From sequence record NC_100372.1: a stretch of DNA of 64,000 bases; one strand, written 5' to 3'. Below, one piece after another: positions 1,798 through 26,314 of the stretch. The translations under genes were made by a program, and so were the position numbers. Each line of letters starts with the position of its first letter. The first letter of the stretch is position 1. The notes under the pieces were generated by a model that was not told the DNA's origin, searched no databases, and worked only from the letters and a program-made list of their open reading frames with translations. This stretch comes from a phage.

Positions 1798-2374
1798 AGA
1801 AGTTGATAACTATATTATCACCTTTTTGCATAGCATCGACTTTTTGCTTAATTTTATAAATATCCCTGATATGAAACCTACCCTTTGGGGATTGAGTTAT
1901 TATCTTCATAGTGTCCCCTGCGGCAATAGGTTTTCTAAGTCTTGGAGATATGCTTATAACAGCAGACCCAACACCATCGCTGCGCACTGGAGCTGTTACC
2001 ACTTTCAATTCATCGTTAACAGATATTTTATCCCCAGCTCTAGCTATGTCTCTGTTTGGCTCCCATCCGACCGTCTTCAAAAAATCGTCGTTACCAGTAG
2101 GCCCAAGGGCGATTGGCTCATTAGCTGTTACTGAGTGACCGTACGTTTTAATAAGAAAAATGTTCCCATCTTTATACACCTGATCAACAAAGCTCTTAAG
2201 CTCTAGCAGCTGTGACTCGCTGATATTGGAAACCGTCAAAGTGCCTTTCCAGTTAGGTGTGGCATAGGTCACTTTTTGCGTTTTACCTGTAAACGGACTT
2301 TTAAACGTAACAATATCTGCCAGCAGCTCCAATCTGATGTCTGGAAGGTATCTAGGCCTTTCCCATAAAAACAT
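1784..2374 (-). CDS. hypothetical tail-associated protein
   Basis: 196-aa ORF directly downstream of the long fibre gene and its terminator. Confidence 0.3.
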   Translation of the reverse strand: MFLWERPRYLPDIRLELLADIVTFKSPFTGKTQKVTYATPNWKGTLTVSNISESQLLELKSFVDQVYKDGNIFLIKTYGHSVTANEPIALGPTGNDDFLKTVGWEPNRDIARAGDKISVNDELKVVTAPVRSDGVGSAVISISPRLRKPIAAGDTMKIITQSPKGRFHIRDIYKIKQKVDAMQKGDNIVINFFEDF

Positions 2375-2446
2375 TGTGCCTCCAGGTTAAACAATCATGA
2401 TAGTTATTTTACCAGATTTTGAGTTAATACGCAATACAAACAAAAA

Positions 2447-2466
2447 GCCCCCGCCGAAGCGAGGGC
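2447..2466 (-). terminator. rho-independent terminator after long tail fibre gene
   Basis: Minus strand reads GCCCTCGC-TTCG-GCGGGGGC followed by TTTTTGTTTG, immediately after the fibre stop at 2474. Confidence 0.5.
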
Positions 2467-2473
2467 AAAACAG

Positions 2474-5400
2474 TTACTTCAGTTTCTCTTGCAACCCAGT
2501 AACAACCTCTGTCAATTTTTTAACCTGCTCCTCAAGGGAGGTTATTTTATCATCCTGTTCCCTACAAACTTGGACAAGCAAGCCTGTCACAGCTGCGTAG
2601 TCAACATTATAGAATCTTTCCTCGGTCATCAGAGGAATACCATCTTGAGTAGAACCAGGAACCTCTTTCCTTTTCACGAAAGAACCAACCGCTTCAGGTA
2701 ATGCTTCCATAACCTCTTGAGCAATTACCCCCGCGTGAGGCATACCATTCTCTTTTAGAGTGTAGGTATAGCCCTTCATCTTACGGATAGCTTCCAGCGC
2801 GTTAGGAATAACCTCTATGTTATCCTTCAGGTCTCTATCAGAGCTCTGGCTCACAGTGGTGCACTCAACTACACCGTTGACAGCAAAATATCTTGACTTA
2901 GCCTCGTCTGCCCTAGCCCCGCAGTGGAATACCCAACTAGCAGAAGAAGAGTTGTCGTTTATCTGAAACTCAAGAACGTTCTTCCTGTCTGCGCCGTTAC
3001 CCCAATAGTACATTCTACCTGAATTGGCGGGTAAGTTATCGGCGTTACTAGAAAGACTGTTAGCACCGACATGAATTTCCAGTTGATTACTGGTTTCACC
3101 AAAAGTGTAATTAGGTCTTAACTGGATGCCCTTACCAGCATCGTGTCTCCATTCTTCCCAAGTAAAGACATCGCCAACGTAGTTACCAGCACGAGTATAT
3201 CTGTCACCAAAATAGGTGATATATTCCTGCACACAACCTTGAGGTCTGTTAGCTGTGTTTTTGTAAACAAGCAGTGTACCAGCGTACGGAGCAGGGTAGT
3301 GGCGATCTATTACAAGTGCGTCAGCGTTTGAACCTTGGTGATAGAAACCTTCACGGCTACCATCATAGGCATTAAGGTCTTCTGTCCCCAGACCTTGACC
3401 ACGGTGCTGAATAACTTTGTTCCACGCCCTGTGGTTACCACCCTCAATAGATCTGGTGTATAACTGATCAAGGCGACCAGCCATTTGGAAAGCATAGTTT
3501 CCAGAAAACGCCACAGACAGTCCACCAACAACCATCGAACCTTCTGGCCCGTTGACGTTGCCAGCCATTATTTTTGACGGGTTATTAGGCCCGAACTGGT
3601 TGTTCCAGTCTCCACCAGTATGACATACAAAACCACCAGGGGCTGAGAAAGTACCATCTTTGTTGAAGTTGTAGAATCTGTGAGCGGAACCTACAACATC
3701 ACGAACAATAACTTGACCAGCTTCTGGAGTAGACCTGAACTCTGCTTGGCCTTGAAGGCCAGCACCATTACCGCATTTAGAGGTAAACGTGCCGTTAGTT
3801 AGATCCTCTGTTCCGTCAGATGCACACTGGAACCCTGCATTAGAGAATAACGCCTTTCTAGGACTGCCGTAGCACAAATAGTCAAGACCGTCTGCCCACA
3901 GCTCGACTTTAGGCATGTTCGTTTTGCTCATCACTGCATAGCGTTCAGGAGTCCCCAGGTAGTGCCACATAGTTCCACCACCAGTGTAGAAACCTGATGT
4001 TCCTTTGAACTCAACCAGAGGTCTGGTGTTTGTTACATCATCACCTTTGATTGCAAGACTCAAATCTGCAGATTCCAGAGGAGCACAGAACTTGACACCA
4101 TCTTGGTTACCTGTCACGTTGCCTACTTGCCAATCAGCCTCCCTGGTTGACACTTCTATTACAGTAGCGCCAGCATATACTGTAACAGGGAATGCACGTG
4201 CCTCTACATAGAATGCAACATACTCCTGCTTACCTCTGGTTGGAGATACACATCCGAGGATTGCTCTCTCGTTTTGGTAGAAATTAATAACCCCTTGGAA
4301 AGAATCACCTCTGTCCGTCCAGCCACCAGTTCTGTAGTGACACTGTAGTGTAGCACAGTTCATTGGGTCGCCGCCAGAAGAAGATCTGGTGACAATGGTT
4401 AAATCTGTCCCGATAGTTGCTGCAAAGTTGGGGTCAGTTCTGACGATAATAGGATAATACTTACCGTCCTGCATAGCTGCAGTTCTGGGCAGGTTTACAT
4501 ATGGTCTAGCGCCTGCTGCCAGAGGGATTCTGAATTGTGCTTGAGCATCCCCTACAGTCCTGGCACTGGTACCACCACAAGCTATCGGTAGTGGTTCCCA
4601 TTTGGCTTTCCGGTTGTTATAAACACCCCACTCAAGCGTTCCTTCACCTTGCTCGTCCATACCGCCATCCCAGATGACCATCTTGGCGGCTTTCTTAGAT
4701 CCCCAGAAACCTCTTTCTGCCCTTGAACTGCGGATCCATTCTCCAAGTCCCCAGTTTGCCAGCTGACCGTTCAGATCACCAACCTGCATATATTTAGGAC
4801 AATCTAAGACCCCATCCTCGCGGAAGCCTAAATATCTATGAGTTTCAGATCCTTTTGCGCCTTTGTGCAGGTGGATTGTCAACCAAGCCTTATTGTCGTT
4901 TCTTACCTCAGAGTAGATCCTATACCCATGCTCAAGGACACCGTCAGCGCTGTATTTGTCCCCGTTAACAATACCTGATGCCGACTTAACATCAGCCGAG
5001 CTTTGAGACAGGTAAAGGTGCCCGAAGGTAGGAGAATTCCTAGACCCAAGACCGATGTGCGATCTAAAGGTCTCATCGTTACGAGGTCTGACCATCGGCT
5101 GCCATGCAGTCCACTGGTTTGTGTTGGCCTGATAGGTTCTCAAATACCAAACATCTACGTTAGAGAATGGGTAGTATTCCTGACGACAGCCTGTACCGCC
5201 GTTAGCATTGTTCTGCCAGACAATCAAGTGACCAGCACCAGAACCTGCAGGGTAACCATTTGCCTCAGTTGCATAAGCAGTCATCGGCTGGTAGTATATA
5301 CCATCCTGATTACCAGTCAAGTTATTGATATTAAAATTTGACTCAAGGGCTGCACGTTGCTTATAGAAAGCCCCTAAATTAATGCGTGCACCTGCGGCAT

Positions 5401-6318: not shown

Positions 6319-8916
6319 TTAAAGGTACAATCCACGGTATTGAGCATAAAGGCCAAGACCGCGAAGGATTTCGCCAGAGTGATAGCCTACCGGATCAGAA
6401 ACTGCCCAGCAGCCATTTAAAACATTATCCCCATTAATAAAGTGGTGCTTTTGCAGTAGCTTCATACAGGCTTCTACAACAATATCTATTTGAGGTATTG
6501 TTTCTGAATACCCGCACAGACCTAGCCAGCAGCAACCTGCAAGCCATTCACCTACCACCCACATCCTATCTCCTCTATCTTGATAAGAGTATCCACCAGA
6601 GGTGTTAAAGTCTGTAGGCAAATTTCCTGAATGGGATGACTGGAATCTGTTGAGGAACCATGCCCATTTCTGGCAGAACAGGAACAGTCTTTCATCAACA
6701 GGCTCTTTATGTTTCTTGAGCTCATATATTGTGCGGCACGCAGCAACAAAAGATCTTGACTGGAGCTTAGAGTTATCTACCATCTCCCACCAACCAGTCA
6801 ACCCTTCATTACCTCTTTGCCATACATAACGTGAGGCAACTGGACCCTCTGTCTTAAATGTATTGTTATACCAGACTTGAGAGTCATACAGAAAGCCTAT
6901 TGTATTTGACAATCTATGGCGGTCTATGTTTTCTGCACCCATGCAGTAGACTGCTGGGTATTGCATACCAGGACAGGGCCAACTTGGCCTTTCCTCTAAG
7001 AGATAATTTTCCTTATCTATCACCTTTCCGGCAGGGAACACACCTGGGGTGTGCCTGTAGGCACCTTGCTTGTAGTTTCTGACATAGCAATCACCAACCT
7101 TGGCGGTTGATTCTGTCTTGCTTGCCATCCATACGCTAAACCAGATTAGATAAGCATCCCTATCTGCAACATAAAATTGCGGCAGTGTGTTGACGCAATA
7201 CAGATCGAACAAGCCATTACCTATCTGCCTGTCGCTCAGACTGAAATCTACAGAGGTAATTCCTTTAGGGTTAGCAAAGAAAGGTTTAATCTCATCTTCT
7301 GTGTGATGAGGTTGTGTTGGGTCTAGTTTAAAATCACCTAGGGTAAGAGTTTCTGTTACCCATTGCCCGTTAGTGGCATATAGATCAGCATACCATAACC
7401 AACGGTCTTTGTCAAGAAATTTGACCCTTACCATCTCATCATCTGATCGATAAGTCACTGAGTTTAAAGAAATCTCTCTTCCAAAATTGAAAGTTACTTT
7501 GCCTCTTACTATATTGCAACGGGTGAAGTTGTCGGAGTGGTTGTAAATGTCGGTACCATACTGCATACTGACACTCGCGCCACCGCTTACGGTAATGTTT
7601 TCCTCTTTTGGCAAGAGATACGGGTTACCGTCTTTACCAACCACCTCCACGAAATCGGTGACCTTGGCAACTGTCTCTGTTACCTCTGCCCCTCCAAAAG
7701 GGACCCCTATCCTATACTGTTTTTTGTTATTGTTGCCATCATTAAGGATGAAATGTGGCTGGAACAGGACCCCTTCTCCTCCAAAATTCATAACAATTTC
7801 GGCATCTCTGCCTATTTTGTATGTAGTCCCTTTTTGGATTATTTCGCAAGGCTGGCGTGCGTTCATTCTAAAATTGATATATCCGTCACTATCCCTACTC
7901 ATGACAGGTACTGTTCCTGCAACTAGACAAGCGCCATCTGTGAACGGGGCCTTAATCAACGTGGTCTTTCTGAACAGCTTGTCGTAGGCATTTATATCAC
8001 TAAAATTAAGCAACTTATTGTAAGACTGCTTAAACGCGGTGTAATACTTTTCCTCACCTGTCAGGGTGTAGAGTTGATAACAAGCGTCACACCACATCTC
8101 TTCCCCATCTAACTCTGGGGCTTGATTGTCTGCAACCACGTTTATAGGATTTACAATTACAGGGGATCCAGCAGGTATCACCGATCCGCCCTGCTCTTGA
8201 GGCAATCTCACACAATAGGTAACCTTGTGGTTGCCTGTAACACCCTTATCTTGCAGTTGGATTGTGCCGAACTCTGCAGACGTATGACCACTGTCGGCTA
8301 TGCTACCGTTGGCCCAATAGCGGTTACCATCCCATGCTATATACCACTCAACCCACCAACTTAATCCGGAAGTTGTCCAATTAGGATTAGCATCTGTGCC
8401 GCCGTAAACATCAGAGTCTACAGTGTTTCTTCCTAAAACACCGTTATACGCCTGAAAAGCCTTGTCCAAGTATTCTCCCCATGTCGGGGATCCTGCTGGG
8501 ATTTTTCCTCTACCTTTGTTAAAAGACACAACCACATCTTTAAACCCACCATGTGATGGAACTCCATCTGTGGATAACGGGTAGTGGGACAATCTTTGCA
8601 TTTTACTTTCTACTGCATATACTCCCAGAAGATGACTGTTGTAGGCTTCCCAAGCCTCTTTGGCCCTGTCCAGATAAAAATCGCTTTTTGATGCCCTGTA
8701 TGCCTCAATGTATCCCAGAATCAACACAGCTTGGGACTCATGCATTGCCCAATCATTATTTATCTTACTTCCTGACCAACCTGACGCTATAAGTCCATCC
8801 TGGTTTACCAGTTTGTTCTGTGTAGGGAGATTGGTAATACCTGTGTTGTTATCGAGGCACTTCCTGTGCCCCTCGATCATCTGAAATACGTTATCAATGT
8901 TGTGTTGAATACGCAT
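6319..8916 (-). CDS. putative tailspike / enzymatic receptor-binding protein (possible depolymerase)
   Basis: 865 aa, Trp/Tyr-rich, enzyme-like N-terminal region (GWSGSKINNDWAMHESQAVLILGYIEAYRASKSDFYLDRAKEAWEAY); sits between the short fibre/adaptor and the long fibre. Confidence 0.4.
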   Translation of the reverse strand: MRIQHNIDNVFQMIEGHRKCLDNNTGITNLPTQNKLVNQDGLIASGWSGSKINNDWAMHESQAVLILGYIEAYRASKSDFYLDRAKEAWEAYNSHLLGVYAVESKMQRLSHYPLSTDGVPSHGGFKDVVVSFNKGRGKIPAGSPTWGEYLDKAFQAYNGVLGRNTVDSDVYGGTDANPNWTTSGLSWWVEWYIAWDGNRYWANGSIADSGHTSAEFGTIQLQDKGVTGNHKVTYCVRLPQEQGGSVIPAGSPVIVNPINVVADNQAPELDGEEMWCDACYQLYTLTGEEKYYTAFKQSYNKLLNFSDINAYDKLFRKTTLIKAPFTDGACLVAGTVPVMSRDSDGYINFRMNARQPCEIIQKGTTYKIGRDAEIVMNFGGEGVLFQPHFILNDGNNNKKQYRIGVPFGGAEVTETVAKVTDFVEVVGKDGNPYLLPKEENITVSGGASVSMQYGTDIYNHSDNFTRCNIVRGKVTFNFGREISLNSVTYRSDDEMVRVKFLDKDRWLWYADLYATNGQWVTETLTLGDFKLDPTQPHHTEDEIKPFFANPKGITSVDFSLSDRQIGNGLFDLYCVNTLPQFYVADRDAYLIWFSVWMASKTESTAKVGDCYVRNYKQGAYRHTPGVFPAGKVIDKENYLLEERPSWPCPGMQYPAVYCMGAENIDRHRLSNTIGFLYDSQVWYNNTFKTEGPVASRYVWQRGNEGLTGWWEMVDNSKLQSRSFVAACRTIYELKKHKEPVDERLFLFCQKWAWFLNRFQSSHSGNLPTDFNTSGGYSYQDRGDRMWVVGEWLAGCCWLGLCGYSETIPQIDIVVEACMKLLQKHHFINGDNVLNGCWAVSDPVGYHSGEILRGLGLYAQYRGLYL

Positions 8917-13382: not shown

Positions 13383-15719
13383 TTACCAAAGATCTGTTGA
13401 CATAAAGTTAATATCTTTGTTGTTCTCCCACTCAAGTTTTGCATCAATTATTTTGTTAAACTCGCCCTCATTTATTGAAATAGTGATTTTCCCATCACTG
13501 ATCTCTAAAGGTAGCATTTCCATAGTTCTTAATTGAGAAGCAAAACCAGGGCCACCTGGCAACGGAAGAGTACCGCCAGGTAAGGTGTCCAAAGGATCAA
13601 CAAACCCGTTACCTCCGGATATAATATCTTTGCGAATCATATCGCTGATAGTATCCAGTTGCTGATTTCTTTCACTCAGCGGGTTGAAACGGTCATTAAA
13701 TAACTCTCCGGCACTTAATATTGTGCCGATAATGCCCAGCTTGCCAAGTATGCCAACTTTACCACCAGGTGTCTTGAGGCCACCTCCACCTTTTCCTGCT
13801 GCGCCTCCACCACCAGATCCTTCTGCAGTGGCTGCACCTGCTGCTCCAGCTGCACCTCTTAGAGAACTAAGGAATTTAAAGGTTTTTACAAGCATGGATG
13901 CCATGACAAAACCTTTTGTCAGGGCGTTGACGACCAGCATGATGGCAGCAGCAAACCCTGCCCATTTAGCATAGCTAAAGGTGTCATGAAGCTCTTCAGA
14001 ATATTCCTTCGTCTTAGCTGTTATGAATCCCCATTTAATCCCCCATTCAAGGAAAAACATGCGGATCTTGACTATAGTGTTGTTCAGTTCACCAACTACC
14101 CAGTTAAGACCTCTCACAAACCCGCTAACAAAATCACCAGAGGCATCCCACACAAATTGCAAAGTCTCACCAGTGCGGATCAGTGTATAATAGAACTCTG
14201 TTAGTTCGTCAGCCCAACGGGTGAACAGTTTCTGACGGGACAGTTCGATGAAGGTTTTCAGTCTGTTTTCTGCCAGCACGTTAGACTTCTGCATTCTCTC
14301 ATAACCAGCTGCAGATGCCTCGTTCATGTACTTAGCCACATACTTCATGATCTTGGCTGTTTTAACCTCACCTTTCTTCATCATGTCCATGAACTGATCC
14401 ATGGAGAGTTCAGAAAGACCAAAAGCCTCTTTGGTGGCCTTGATGAAAGGTTCATATGCCCCAGGTAACGCCTCAGCAAGCTGTTGCTTAAGTTCTTCTG
14501 ACATTACCTGTCCTTTACCAAGCATTTGCTGGATTGCCATAATACCGCGCTGGTATTTTACCTCATCAGCACCATAAGCAGCAGCATATTGAGAGTATGC
14601 AGAGAATAGCTCATGTACCTCTTGGTTTGTCATCTGATTTTTGGCGTTCACCGCCATCTGAGAATAACCCTGAAGACCAGATTTGAGATCAAAACCAAGA
14701 CGCATAGCCTCCTGCTGGACAAACGCAACTTCACTGTTGGCTTTGTTTGGATCTCCAGTAACAGCAGTAAGAGCAGCACTTGCCCCCTCCATCATGTGAC
14801 CGGATCTGTTCACCGCAGCAAATCCAGAAAAAGCTGTATACGCAGCTGTTGCATTAATAACAGATCTACGTAAGTCTCTCAAGGCATCGCCTAGTGTAAG
14901 CGTTTGGCTGGTGGCGCTTTTAAACCCAGACTGCAGAGCTGACAGGTGGGCGTTAAAGGTTGACTTTTTCATCTCTCCGCGAGCAAACCTGGACTCTAAC
15001 TCGGAGTATCCTGGCAAGCTTCCACGGAATCCGGCTCCATACTTGGCAGAAAGTCTTATCGCAGAGTTGTATAGGTGGGTTCTCCTTGCCTCACGATCCG
15101 ACATAAGCCTATTATCCATACCAGCTTTACTGTCCCTTCTTAGCTGCCTATGGTAACGGTTCATAGCCGCTGTCTGAGCTTTCACAAGATTAGGGTCGGA
15201 AGCCACACCACCCATGTTAGGGTTACCGGGGATATATTTGAAAGATTTGGCATTAGCCAAAACTCTTGCCTTAGGTGCCTTATACCCGCCGTAAGACACT
15301 GGTGCAGATTTGGCAGCCTTTTTGGCCTCTTTAGCTTGCTGCTGGTAGAACTTACGCATCCTTGCCATTTCTGGATTTTTAGCAGTAAGATTACCTACAG
15401 CTTGTTTACGTCTCGCGTTCTCCCTACGTTCTATTGCAGCCCTTACTGCAGCCTCTTTCTTGGCTTGTGCTACGCTCTCCCTGTGCAGTTTAGCATTTGC
15501 CTGAGATTGCTGCCTGGCAACCCGCTGCATTGTTTGCTGGGTTTTAACAGCCACTGCCTGCCATCTACTCATTGGGTTGGCTGAGTTAAAATCCTCGCCC
15601 AGTTTCCTGAACTCCCTCCCAATACTGCGAATTTTCTCTACAGCTTTTTTGTAGGAGGAGTTCTCTATCTCAAAGCCAATCTTGTTGACTGTTGTGGCAA
15701 CTATTTTGTTTGTAGCCAT
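13383..15719 (-). CDS. tail tape measure protein
   Basis: 778 aa, Ala/Gln/Lys-rich helical sequence with internal Gly-rich tract (AAGAAGAATAEGSGGGGAAGKGGGGLKTPGG); follows putative tail chaperone genes. Confidence 0.7.
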   Translation of the reverse strand: MATNKIVATTVNKIGFEIENSSYKKAVEKIRSIGREFRKLGEDFNSANPMSRWQAVAVKTQQTMQRVARQQSQANAKLHRESVAQAKKEAAVRAAIERRENARRKQAVGNLTAKNPEMARMRKFYQQQAKEAKKAAKSAPVSYGGYKAPKARVLANAKSFKYIPGNPNMGGVASDPNLVKAQTAAMNRYHRQLRRDSKAGMDNRLMSDREARRTHLYNSAIRLSAKYGAGFRGSLPGYSELESRFARGEMKKSTFNAHLSALQSGFKSATSQTLTLGDALRDLRRSVINATAAYTAFSGFAAVNRSGHMMEGASAALTAVTGDPNKANSEVAFVQQEAMRLGFDLKSGLQGYSQMAVNAKNQMTNQEVHELFSAYSQYAAAYGADEVKYQRGIMAIQQMLGKGQVMSEELKQQLAEALPGAYEPFIKATKEAFGLSELSMDQFMDMMKKGEVKTAKIMKYVAKYMNEASAAGYERMQKSNVLAENRLKTFIELSRQKLFTRWADELTEFYYTLIRTGETLQFVWDASGDFVSGFVRGLNWVVGELNNTIVKIRMFFLEWGIKWGFITAKTKEYSEELHDTFSYAKWAGFAAAIMLVVNALTKGFVMASMLVKTFKFLSSLRGAAGAAGAATAEGSGGGGAAGKGGGGLKTPGGKVGILGKLGIIGTILSAGELFNDRFNPLSERNQQLDTISDMIRKDIISGGNGFVDPLDTLPGGTLPLPGGPGFASQLRTMEMLPLEISDGKITISINEGEFNKIIDAKLEWENNKDINFMSTDLW

Positions 15720-15773
15720 GCTTTCCTCATAATAAAAAGGGCCAGATCCCAGAAAAGGAATCCGGCCCTTAGA

Positions 15774-16022
15774 TTATCCTCTCCTGCGCTTAGCTTTCGC
15801 AGCAGCTGCGGCAGCCTTCTGCTCCCGCTCCATTTCCCTGTTTTGGACGGTATCTAGGAATTCTTCGATATCAAGATACTCACAGAGTTTCAGGAAATAC
15901 GCCATATCTGCAAGATTTAGCGATTCAAAATTTTCCCCTTTGAAATTCTTGAGCACCCTGCACCAAAGAAAGTCGAACCAGTTAAGTGAACTGTTCTTGG
16001 CTGCCCACTCACTGGCCCTCAC
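15774..16022 (-). CDS. hypothetical small protein (possible tail assembly chaperone partner)
   Basis: 82-aa ORF between the chaperone candidate and the tape measure gene. Confidence 0.3.
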   Translation of the reverse strand: MRASEWAAKNSSLNWFDFLWCRVLKNFKGENFESLNLADMAYFLKLCEYLDIEEFLDTVQNREMEREQKAAAAAAKAKRRRG

Positions 16023-16033
16023 AACAACCTTGC

Positions 16034-16507
16034 TTATTCCTGCTCTTCCGGAGCCTGATCCAGATTGTTCACCTGCTGGATCATACCCATCTGCTGTAAC
16101 ATCTCCAGAAGGCTTCCTAAACCGTCTTGTGTGAAAAAACAGCCGTAGTTAACCTCCAGAACCTTACCTGCCAGCTTAATCATCTCCAGCAGATGCCCTG
16201 CAAACACAACATCAGGGTTAAGCTTATCCACACCATCCACGGTAATATCTTCGAACAAGATCTTAAATAACTCTTCAATAGAGTTATCATCAAGTTCTTG
16301 AAACAGGTAAGCCAGGGCTGTAGGAAGGACCTCTGCCATATTCTGACCACCTGAGAGAATAGATCCGCCGACAGCTCCTAGCGGGACAGCTACAATCTTA
16401 CCGATTTTAGGCATGTTTTTCATTGCTTTCATCGGTCCCCAGTGGGTGATCACAAAGTTGTGCCCTGCTAAATCAATCTCTGTTGTAGGTCTAAAGTTTA
16501 TAGCCAT
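16034..16507 (-). CDS. putative tail assembly chaperone
   Basis: 157-aa acidic protein located between tube-like and tape measure genes; RBS AAGGATG upstream of ATG at 16507. Confidence 0.35.
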   Translation of the reverse strand: MAINFRPTTEIDLAGHNFVITHWGPMKAMKNMPKIGKIVAVPLGAVGGSILSGGQNMAEVLPTALAYLFQELDDNSIEELFKILFEDITVDGVDKLNPDVVFAGHLLEMIKLAGKVLEVNYGCFFTQDGLGSLLEMLQQMGMIQQVNNLDQAPEEQE

Positions 16508-16550
16508 TTTATAGCATCCTTATTAGTCATGTTGTGCACCATATTTGTGT

Positions 16551-16579
16551 ATTTTACCATGATTATGGTGCATTGTCAA
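16551..16579 (-). promoter_or_regulatory. sigma70-like promoter (TTGACA-N17-TAAAAT) flanked by a 9-bp inverted repeat
   Basis: Minus strand TTGACA (16579-16574), 17-nt spacer, TAAAAT (16556-16551); inverted repeat TGCACCATA / TATGGTGCA at 16535-16543 and 16564-16572 brackets the -10. Confidence 0.45.
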
Positions 16580-16630
16580 TTTAACCTTTCAAGCAATCCA
16601 AAAGAGTTTGTCAAAACCATAAAAGCAAAA

Positions 16631-16653
16631 AGCCCCACCCGAAGGTGAGGCTT
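16631..16653 (-). terminator. rho-independent terminator after tube-like gene
   Basis: Minus strand AAGCCTCACC-TTCG-GGTGGGGCTT followed by TTTTGCTTTT, downstream of the stop at 16670. Confidence 0.5.
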
Positions 16654-16669
16654 ATACTAAAGTGTGCCC

Positions 16670-17143
16670 TTAGATAATACCTGCAAGACCTGCGAGGCCA
16701 GTGAGAGCACCAGTGATGTTGTCACGGTTGAGCCATGCATCCAGAATACCGATATCCCAGTCCAGCTGACCTACTTCGGTTCCGTAAGTGAGGTCAGGCT
16801 GTTTTTGGATCCAACCGATTGTAGCAATACCAGGACCCTGGCTACCTTCCAGTAGAACCGGGAAGAATACCAGACCAGTAATAGATGCCTGTTTCTGCCA
16901 GTCAGAAAGGTAAGCGTTCCATACAGAAGTGTTCTGCAAAGACACAGTCATAACACCAGATTGGTTACGAGACAGGGCTGCAGACATTTCGCCATCCACA
17001 CCAACATGAGGGTAGATGTTGTCTTCGTTTCTTGAAACAACAATCTTGGTGTCAGCAGCGAAGCCAGTGACACGCTGCTGCATCAGATACAGTTTGACCT
17101 TTTTAGGGTCATAAGCATAAGGAGTTAAAATTTGAGTTTCCAT
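16670..17143 (-). CDS. putative tail tube protein
   Basis: 157 aa; directly follows the sheath-like gene and is followed by terminator, chaperone candidates and tape measure. Confidence 0.4.
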   Translation of the reverse strand: METQILTPYAYDPKKVKLYLMQQRVTGFAADTKIVVSRNEDNIYPHVGVDGEMSAALSRNQSGVMTVSLQNTSVWNAYLSDWQKQASITGLVFFPVLLEGSQGPGIATIGWIQKQPDLTYGTEVGQLDWDIGILDAWLNRDNITGALTGLAGLAGII

Positions 17144-17153
17144 CTAGTCTTCC

Positions 17154-18530
17154 TTATTCAGTCATTGCAACAGCATTGGTGGATTTAGAACCAACCTTGT
17201 CCAGAAGGACGTTGATCCGGATACGAACGAAGTGCAGGGCGTTGTTATACACCAGTTCTACTTTCACACCTTCCAGAACACGAGCAGCCAACTGATTGGT
17301 TGGGATCTCTGCACGTTTAGGAACTGTGATGATCGGGTCGTAGAACACATTGTTGTCTTCGTCAAAACCTGTCAGGATCGCGCCATTCTTAATGCCAGTA
17401 TTGATCGGGTTGTTCATCAGAACAGACTTGATAACCGGAAGATCATCATCAGACATCTTCATGCTTAAACCCATATTGGAGCGACGATGCATGTACCCAA
17501 ACATGGATTCTTCAGATCTGAACTTGATCCAGTGTGCAAAACGAATAGCGTCTGCATACTGACCTGAAGCACACTTACCTTCCCAGAAAGCGCCAACACC
17601 GTTAATCATTCTGTAGAAGTTAACGTGGTTTTCCCAAATCGCCATACGTTGAGTTAAAGTCAGAGATGGTGCAATCACACCTGGCATCTGTTTTAAGTGC
17701 AAGCTGTCACCGTAGGACGGATCGTTGGATGCCATAGCACCTATGATACCACCCTCCGGGAAGTCCTTATCTGCACGAGGATCGTACATGCCAACACTGT
17801 CATATTGTGCAGCTTTCAGTTTGGTAGCGATGTTGCTATCTTTGCCAGTCACATCTTCTGCAGTAGAGTAGACGTGCAGCTTGTAGTTGGCCTGAGCCCA
17901 CTTAGCACATGCTTCAATGTCGGTGTGGTCTTCATGGCACAGGAAGTACCAATTGTCCCGCTCAGCATTGATCTTATCAACTACTGTAGAAGGTTTTTCA
18001 GAATTGGCGATATTCTTGATTGTATAGTTACCAGTATGATAACCAACAGTGCAGTCACCAGTGATGGTGATAACACCTTCAGAAGCCTCTACAGTGATAT
18101 CGTTCAAGTTATCATCTGCTTCGATTTTAGTCTTCATTGATTCTGCAATCTGAGTTGCAGCTGTCCCACCAGAGATAGGAACTATCAAAGAGGTATTGTA
18201 GCCACCTTTTGCAATAGTCATTACGACATCAGTATCAGCTGCGGCAGCAATACCTTTAAAATCTACAGTGGTTTTTTCTTTGGCCTGTCTGCCGATCATA
18301 ACATATTGTGGAGGGAATACACCACCAAAAGCTTTTGCTGCAAACTCATACGCTGCAGAGCCTTGTGCGAAACCATCTTCCACCATCTGATCCAGCTCCG
18401 CATATACGCGAGCTCGCTCAGTGAAGTTGTTGTGGATAGCGATGAACAGGGGAGTTTCGAAACCTACAGTGTCAATAGGTTGGGTTCCGAGGTTAACTGT
18501 AACATCTACCACTTTATCTAAATATGGCAT
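17154..18530 (-). CDS. major tail protein, sheath-like (tentative)
   Basis: 458 aa; N-terminal VDVTVNLGTQPIDTVGFETPLFIAI resembles the sheath N-terminal pattern as recalled; sheath-tube-chaperone-tape measure order. Confidence 0.4.
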   Translation of the reverse strand: MPYLDKVVDVTVNLGTQPIDTVGFETPLFIAIHNNFTERARVYAELDQMVEDGFAQGSAAYEFAAKAFGGVFPPQYVMIGRQAKEKTTVDFKGIAAAADTDVVMTIAKGGYNTSLIVPISGGTAATQIAESMKTKIEADDNLNDITVEASEGVITITGDCTVGYHTGNYTIKNIANSEKPSTVVDKINAERDNWYFLCHEDHTDIEACAKWAQANYKLHVYSTAEDVTGKDSNIATKLKAAQYDSVGMYDPRADKDFPEGGIIGAMASNDPSYGDSLHLKQMPGVIAPSLTLTQRMAIWENHVNFYRMINGVGAFWEGKCASGQYADAIRFAHWIKFRSEESMFGYMHRRSNMGLSMKMSDDDLPVIKSVLMNNPINTGIKNGAILTGFDEDNNVFYDPIITVPKRAEIPTNQLAARVLEGVKVELVYNNALHFVRIRINVLLDKVGSKSTNAVAMTE

Positions 18531-18602
18531 TTGTTTCCTCTTAATATCTGTGCACGGATATCAAACACGCAGTGTAATCATTACACTACACAATTATAAC
18601 GA

Positions 18603-20069: not shown

Positions 20070-20110
20070 TAATGTATTTTACCACAAAGATACATCAAAA
20101 GCAACAATTT

Positions 20111-26264: not shown

Positions 26265-26314
26265 AGTATCTCCGATTACTCTATTCTACCACATCTAATT
26301 AAGATTGGCAACAC

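Follow-up and report, generated by a model that had tools for sequence, protein, structure and literature searches.

An inverted repeat centred on the -10 element of a predicted sigma70-type promoter behind the tail tube terminator of an rV5-like coliphage

Introduction

The operators of lambda cI and Cro, of P22 Arc and Mnt, the LexA boxes and bioO all have dyad symmetry lying over the site of RNA polymerase. Classical operators of helix-turn-helix dimers span 14-22 bp, and the half-site centres of a dimer operator are about 10-11 bp, or an integral number of helical turns, apart; bioO of BirA, a 40-bp operator, is a long example. In T4, late promoters are placed within hairpins which, in early RNA that reads through them, cover the translation start, as in gene e (lysozyme), soc, I-TevI and gene 49. 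The free-standing homing endonuclease genes of T-even phages (seg, mob) are located in intergenic spacers, with polymorphic targets nearby.

Promoter P51 of the rV5-like coliphages resembles each of these systems in some respects. Like the palindromic operators, it has dyad symmetry over the RNA polymerase site. Like the hairpin promoters of T4, it is a late-type promoter between two arms, and RNA initiated there lacks the 5' arm. Like the seg and mob loci, the spacer carries an HNH-type gene in some relatives, a scar-like remnant, and a polymorphic patch by the junction. It also differs from all three. Unlike the palindromic operators, the P51 repeat is a single site, its half-sites are 29 bp apart with an unconserved gap of 20 bp, and its symmetry is broken by natural alleles. 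Unlike in T4, the 3' arm excludes both the Shine-Dalgarno sequence and the start codon, and the predicted effect on accessibility is small. Unlike a T-even seg or mob locus, the window (the whole 64,000-nucleotide stretch of phage DNA analysed here, NC_100372.1) does not contain the endonuclease gene, and the target site here is only a candidate.

We favour the reading that P51 is a constitutive sigma70 promoter of the extended -10 type, which restarts transcription behind the terminator of the tube gene, and that the repeat around it is incidental. We give this reading a probability of roughly 0.6.

Results

The locus and its genes

In a megablast search with positions 15700-18600, the window had 116 near-full-length matches at 95-99% identity and proved to be an rV5-like coliphage of the genus Vequintavirus, with EduardKellenberger (MZ501061) as the closest relative. 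The genes around the promoter, in 5' to 3' order of the minus strand, are as follows.

17154-18530, minus: sheath gene (phrog_205)
16670-17143, minus: tail tube gene, 157 aa (phrog_280 virion structural protein, E 1.4e-41)
16034-16507, minus: tail assembly chaperone (TAC) gene (phrog_3840, E 1.7e-68; Pfam Phage_TAC_15)
15774-16022, minus: 82-aa ORF
13383-15719, minus: tape measure gene

A protein identical to the tube gene product matches Pfam Phage_Tube_PhiTE, and the gene is annotated as tail tube in relatives. The chaperone gene has a Shine-Dalgarno sequence, AAGGA, at 16521-16517 (minus) and its ATG at 16507-16505; both are outside the repeat described below, at least 13 nt downstream of it. 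A ribosome-binding site is annotated at the equivalent position in Murica.

Within the chaperone gene there is a slippery site, T_TTT_TTC, at 16133-16139 (minus), which is canonical for -1 programmed frameshifting, and the -1 frame is open to 15774. The product of frameshifting at this site would consist of about 122 N-terminal residues joined to the frame downstream, which ends with the 82-aa ORF. In rV5 the overlap region is annotated as a separate gene, gp050.

Eighteen GenBank records of the MG0656xx series (e.g. MG065652 and MG065690) are named 'Campylobacter phage', and Campylobacter jejuni is their listed host. Over the tube-chaperone region these records are 95-97% identical to the Vequintavirus of E. 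coli, and they probably owe their names to mislabelling or to contaminant assemblies.

A terminator followed by a predicted promoter

The tube gene is closed by a terminator on the same strand.

16620-16653, minus: rho-independent terminator t052 (stem 16653-16630, TTCG loop, then T-run)

Its stem has 10 pairs, six of which are G-C. The terminator is listed as t052, at -18.3 kcal/mol, in Table S4 of Kropinski et al. 2013 (PMC3606486), and it is annotated in EdH4, Gotham and Murica. As a terminator-plus-restart unit we counted a G+C-rich hairpin with a T-run and a promoter within about 100 bp on the same strand. The terminator at 16653-16620 and the -35 element beginning at 16579 form such a unit, and the layout is shared by P040/t041 and P048/t049, whose promoters, like P051, are directly behind terminators. 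The late region of rV5 has at least three units in which a terminator is followed by a late motif, P51 being one of them.

Positions 16623-16653 (minus) are 90% identical over 31 nt to the annotated T7 terminator at 7564-7594, which we take to be the early terminator TE. The tube terminator is also 100% identical over 27 nt to intergenic sites of Erwinia and Serratia jumbo phages. These likenesses could have arisen by convergence on hairpins with a TTCG loop, or from a module common to these phages.

Anatomy of promoter P51

The elements of the promoter are as follows.

16574-16579, minus: -35 element TTGACA of P51 (RefSeq NC_011041, 'Sigma70-type promoter; P51')
16551-16559, minus: extended -10 element TGgTAAAAT of P51 (TG 16559-16558, TAAAAT 16556-16551), the core of the rV5 'late' motif TggTAaAAtA
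16544, minus: predicted transcription start of P51, an A, 7 nt past the -10 from the usual sigma70 spacing

We regarded as sigma70-type a promoter with TTGACA and TATAAT hexamers 16-18 bp apart, the extension being a TG one base upstream of the -10. P51 has a 17-nt spacer between -35 and -10, matches the hexamers at 11 of 12 positions, carries the TG extension, and is the best sigma70-like site between 10000 and 24000. The earlier note had described a TTGACA-N17-TAAAAT promoter between the tube terminator and the chaperone gene, and it is present on the minus strand exactly where that note had put it.

The promoter is not new, as it was predicted already in 2013; what is new is the observation of the repeat. 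Kropinski et al. 2013 (PMC3606486) listed P051 in Table S4 under sigma70-type promoters, and also among eight 'late promoter' sites which were found by MEME upstream of genes 27-66 and share the motif TggTAaAAtA. The 37-nt MEME entry of P051 in the same table (PMC3606486) is TGCACCATAATCATGGTAAAATACACAAATATGGTGC; it covers both arms of the repeat save the final base of the downstream arm. The text of that paper (PMC3606486) contains neither 'inverted repeat' nor 'palindrom'. P51 is also annotated in the Gotham record. When compared to P51/P051 of rV5 at the same locus, the 56 nt from 16528 to 16583 were 100% identical.

The promoter is probably more than a chance match, because it is unchanged in 117 of 117 GenBank relatives and its motif is enriched in the window. 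The searchable full-text literature yielded no start-site, transcript-mapping or expression studies of Vequintavirus; the activity and timing of P51 are predictions, and we infer its activity and its start site.

An exact copy of TGGTAAAATA at 16559-16550 (minus), upstream of a structural gene, makes P51 a member of the late-motif family. Allowing up to one mismatch, the window holds 16 copies of TGGTAAAATA against 5.85 expected, and none of 100 shuffles reached 16. Most of the other late sites of rV5 have TTGCnn 17 nt from a TG-extended -10. Further copies of TGGTAAAATA on the minus strand of the window, at 2405-2414, 20075-20084 and 26282-26291, correspond to P040, P056 and P064 of rV5. Since these three have TTGCnn -35 boxes at 17 nt, they appear to be ordinary sigma70 promoters of the extended -10 type and not a promoter class peculiar to the phage.

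The inverted repeat and its expected frequency

The two arms of the repeat are located on either side of the -10 element.

16564-16572, minus: upstream arm TGCACCATA, within the promoter spacer (-28 to -20 if +1 is 16544)
16535-16543, minus: downstream arm TATGGTGCA, about +2 to +10 of the P51 transcript

TGCACCATA and TATGGTGCA are exact complements over 9 bp, separated by a 20-bp spacer, and the symmetry axis at 16553.5 is the centre of the -10 hexamer. The perfect repeat centred on the -10, as it had been reported from the sequence, is therefore an exact match. The half-site centres are 29 bp apart, or about 2.8 helical turns, and the accompanying statement that such geometry is 'typical' of a dimeric regulator was overstated.

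In the window, perfect 9-bp inverted repeats with loops of 3-30 number 18 (at about 13 loci), against 8.8 +/- 3.6 in first-order Markov simulations, and several of the excess loci are terminators. The 9-mer of the repeat, with up to one mismatch, is not enriched in the window (20 occurrences, 17.5 expected). On its own, the repeat is within chance expectation, which is about nine such repeats per 64 kb. Against an incidental origin, the chance of one in any given 50-bp stretch is less than 1%, as derived from the Markov simulation.

The earlier note had proposed a search for the same repeat elsewhere, and this search gave no second copy in the 137,947-bp genome of rV5. The exact 9-mer occurs five times in that genome and forms an inverted pair only at P51, the three other occurrences all being unpaired. 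Degenerate arm pairs, with 2 mismatches per arm and loops of up to 40, were at chance level as well (23 found, 18.5 expected). None of the 24 other annotated promoters of rV5 shares the arms. The repeat was rejected as a general feature of late promoters, since the other seven late-motif sites are flanked by inverted repeats of 4-6 bp only.

Variation of the repeat among relatives

All 117 GenBank records agree over the 40 nt from 16518 to 16557, a stretch that includes the -10 and the downstream arm, and the 56 nt from 16528 to 16583 are identical in 106 of the 117. In the 11 variant records the changes are confined to four positions.

16565-16568, minus: hypervariable patch CCAT within the upstream arm (C5T, C6A, C6T, A7G, T8C, C5T+C6T)

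Eight of the variant GenBank records have A7G, JEP1 and HMD-6 have C6T, and ECP26 has C5T+C6T. Contigs from ENA, Logan, JGI and metagenomes add C5T, C6A, T8C, another CC>TT and two more cases of C6T. The downstream arm is changed in one metagenomic allele, C8A in L069, and this change is uncompensated. The repeat is perfect in about 87% of genomes. Across about 140 related genomes, seven alleles disrupt its symmetry, none of them is compensated, and no pair is changed on both sides; in the same genomes the -35, the TG and the -10 are invariant and the leader is almost wholly so. With only about 3-4% divergence within the genus, there is limited power to detect selection on the arms.

Over the GAAAGG...ATGGC element of these approximately 140 genomes, the 4 nt of CCAT account for at least six independent events, and the other 84 nt together for 4. 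Simple neutral drift of the spacer does not explain this clustering of substitutions. Escape from a restriction site was rejected as an origin of the hotspot, since in rV5 the k-mers that include CCA are as frequent as expected and the recognition patterns of EcoKI, EcoBI and EcoprrI do not fit. CCA-N6-TGG occurs 60 times in rV5, with about 25 expected. Templated (quasi-palindrome) mutagenesis through the inner ACCAT/ATGGT hairpin was also rejected, as the changes that it predicts are outside CCAT and none of them was seen.

In Seunavirus, Mydovirus, Avunavirus, Henunavirus and more distant relatives, the tube-chaperone spacer is 74-87 bp long and unrelated in sequence. The sigma70 promoter and the repeat are both absent from this spacer in the other genera of Vequintavirinae and in more distant relatives. 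The repeat is kept in most Vequintavirus genomes and missing from the other genera of the subfamily.

These distributions bear on the reading in which a dimeric or tetrameric regulator, of phage or host origin, has its operator in the repeat and would occlude RNA polymerase at P51 and so gate re-initiation. A symmetry that is perfect over 9 bp and lies exactly on the centre of the -10 would suit an operator, as would its retention in most genomes of the genus, and among the proteins of rV5, gp153 is annotated as a transcriptional regulator and gp75 as GntR-like. However, there is one such site in 138 kb, with no degenerate copies above chance, and all other annotated promoters and late-motif sites lack it. 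Seven natural alleles break the symmetry of the DNA uncompensated while the promoter hexamers stay fixed, and the other genera of the subfamily do not have the repeat at all. From general knowledge, a centre spacing of 29 bp is atypical for helix-turn-helix dimers, and the repeat alone is within chance expectation. No cognate regulator gene is adjacent, the neighbouring genes being structural. All five tests, of uniqueness, other promoters, other genera, variation within the genus and geometry, went against an operator; we consider one highly improbable and infer that P51 is without a regulator. The earlier proposal of regulated re-initiation within the late operon is therefore reasonable as to re-initiation, with a strong promoter following a terminator, and unsupported, like the operator itself, as to regulation.

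Folding of the read-through RNA

The repeat might instead act in RNA. Read-through RNA would pair both arms and P51-initiated RNA would be without the upstream arm, so that the two classes of mRNA may differ near the ribosome-binding site of the chaperone gene, or in their processing or stability. The predicted start, with +1 at about 16544, is between the arms, so RNA from P51 should be unable to form the hairpin. In modelled read-through RNA the 9-bp stem had a probability of 0.91-1.0, and the hairpin had an MFE of -13.1 kcal/mol (z = -3.7). The Shine-Dalgarno sequence was modelled as unpaired at 0.66 in the P51 transcript, at 0.42-0.47 in the read-through RNA and at 0.74 when the upstream arm was mutated, although this modelled difference in accessibility is modest and the downstream arm includes neither the Shine-Dalgarno sequence nor the AUG, each of which is at least 13 nt away. 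Five of the seven CCAT substitutions retain G-U pairing in the sense strand, but base composition and transition bias predict such a tendency (about 50% expected), and C6A, T8C and the downstream C8A break pairs. The arms show no compensatory changes. Given the strength of the upstream terminator, little read-through RNA may be made, and nothing comparable was found at the other late promoters.

A switch of the T4 type would thus be geometrically possible at P51 and is weakly supported, because about 50% of G-U retention is expected in any case and because the arm is without Shine-Dalgarno sequence or AUG. We regard a function of the hairpin in distinguishing the two classes of mRNA as unlikely. 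RNA folding found no structured 5' leader in P51 transcripts (z = +0.48). An Rfam search over the spacer returned nothing, with only a sub-threshold match to GcvB in the chaperone gene (E 0.18). Homologues of gp33, gp45 and gp55 are absent from rV5 (PMC3606486).

An endonuclease gene next to the promoter in some relatives

In JEP1, HMD-6 and two Logan contigs (L075 and L078), a protein of 540 or 541 aa is encoded between the terminator and P51. The protein of the JEP1 type matches phrog_559 (HNH endonuclease, E 8.5e-112) and phrog_3339 (homing endonuclease, E 2.2e-68). PDX has an intact variant of the gene, encoding 616 aa, together with wild-type CCAT. The endonuclease gene is absent from the window and from most relatives. 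The coordinates in the relatives, and the related features of the window, are as follows.

JEP1 (L049) 2237-3859: endonuclease gene, protein QOC67640.1
PDX (L050) 1052-2902: endonuclease gene, 616-aa variant
L075 and L078 3280-4905: endonuclease gene
16581-16600, minus: scar or landing site, shared with the last codons and stop (TAA 16583-16581) of the endonuclease gene of JEP1, HMD-6 and PDX
16609-16614, minus: second TTGACA, part of GGTTTTGACA, which the window has kept

These free-standing HNH endonucleases of 540-616 aa carry repeated zinc-finger modules. A pseudogene-flagged 'HNH endonuclease' at this locus in Klebsiella phage K45PH128C2 was left out as an unreliable annotation.

The match breakpoints of A135, PDX and JEP1 in BLAST place the insertion junction at about 16595/16596. 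The endonuclease coding sequence of JEP1 ends in ...GATTGGTTGAAAGGTTAA, and that of PDX is alike; the last codons with the stop, GGATTGGTTGAAAGGTTAA, are also found just upstream of the -35 in genomes without the endonuclease. Downstream of the shared GGTTTTGACA, JEP1 and PDX have the leader and start codon of the endonuclease gene, and the second TTGACA is probably the leftover -35 of that gene's promoter. Part of the spacer of the window looks like a scar or landing site of the endonuclease gene, because the window keeps both 16600-16581 and GGTTTTGACA.

With an endonuclease gene so near, the repeat or the CCAT patch might be part of the recognition site of an HNH homing endonuclease, and the variant alleles might be cleavage-resistant or immune. 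The gene is inserted about 25 nt upstream of the CCAT patch in JEP1, HMD-6, L075 and L078; the substitutions are clustered in 4 nt by the insertion site, and nowhere in the region is polymorphism higher than in the spacer around the junction. C6T is present in all four JEP1-type carriers and in no endonuclease-free genome, but this association may be plain linkage in one clade, and linkage is adequate to explain it because CCAT is wild type in PDX, where the endonuclease variant is intact. Most of the variant CCAT alleles are, moreover, in endonuclease-free phages that show no sign of exposure to the enzyme, and homing endonucleases usually cut a nearby conserved gene. That the repeat or the patch belongs to a recognition site is very unlikely in our view. 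We place equally little weight on the related proposal that CCAT reflects repeated selection of cleavage-resistant alleles at the sole promoter positions that are free to change without harm to transcription, with the window carrying the scar of a lost copy of the gene.

Discussion

Under the preferred reading, that of a restart promoter with an incidental repeat, P51 would be a promoter of the host sigma70 type with a consensus -35 and an extended -10, one of a few late-region promoters that share the TGGTAAAATA core. It would restart transcription directly past the terminator that closes the highly expressed sheath-tube unit, and would thereby keep the chaperone gene (the first gene served), the frameshift product, the tape measure gene and the genes beyond transcribed. 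The upstream arm would be ordinary promoter-spacer DNA that is drifting freely. The repeat would be a genuine sequence feature of the ancestor of the genus and not a protein operator, and physically it would presumably do no more than form a hairpin in the rare RNA that reads through the terminator. The exact centring of the repeat on the -10, its being perfect in about 87% of genomes and the clustering of substitutions in CCAT count against this reading.

An operator at P51 would imply a regulator that gates the expression of tail genes in coliphages which are widely used for therapy and typing, and the evidence argues against this. What remains is the restart promoter that had been predicted earlier, and the late genes of rV5-type phages appear to use host sigma70 promoters with an extended -10. 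The landing site of the endonuclease and the hypervariable patch in the promoter spacer have a modest interest for the population genetics of phages and for work to engineer the locus.

On the opposite strand, a 39-codon ORF (MLCTIFVYFTMIMVHCQ...) at 16529-16648 (plus) spans the whole spacer and has a hydrophobic N-terminus. It has no evident Shine-Dalgarno sequence, L011 has a 1-nt insertion and L012 has further insertions within its span, and we set it aside as probably spurious; its frame is probably not preserved among relatives. Every CCAT allele would be non-synonymous in this ORF.

In the other genera of Vequintavirinae, the tube-chaperone spacer contains two conserved hairpins, GCCAC/GTGGC and ACGC-AGGA-GCGU, the latter around the Shine-Dalgarno sequence. 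Compensatory changes are seen in each hairpin, among them a switch from G-C to A-U that is present in 7 of 15 sequences. In Vequintavirus this two-hairpin spacer is replaced by a cassette made up of the terminator, the endonuclease gene in some genomes, and P51.
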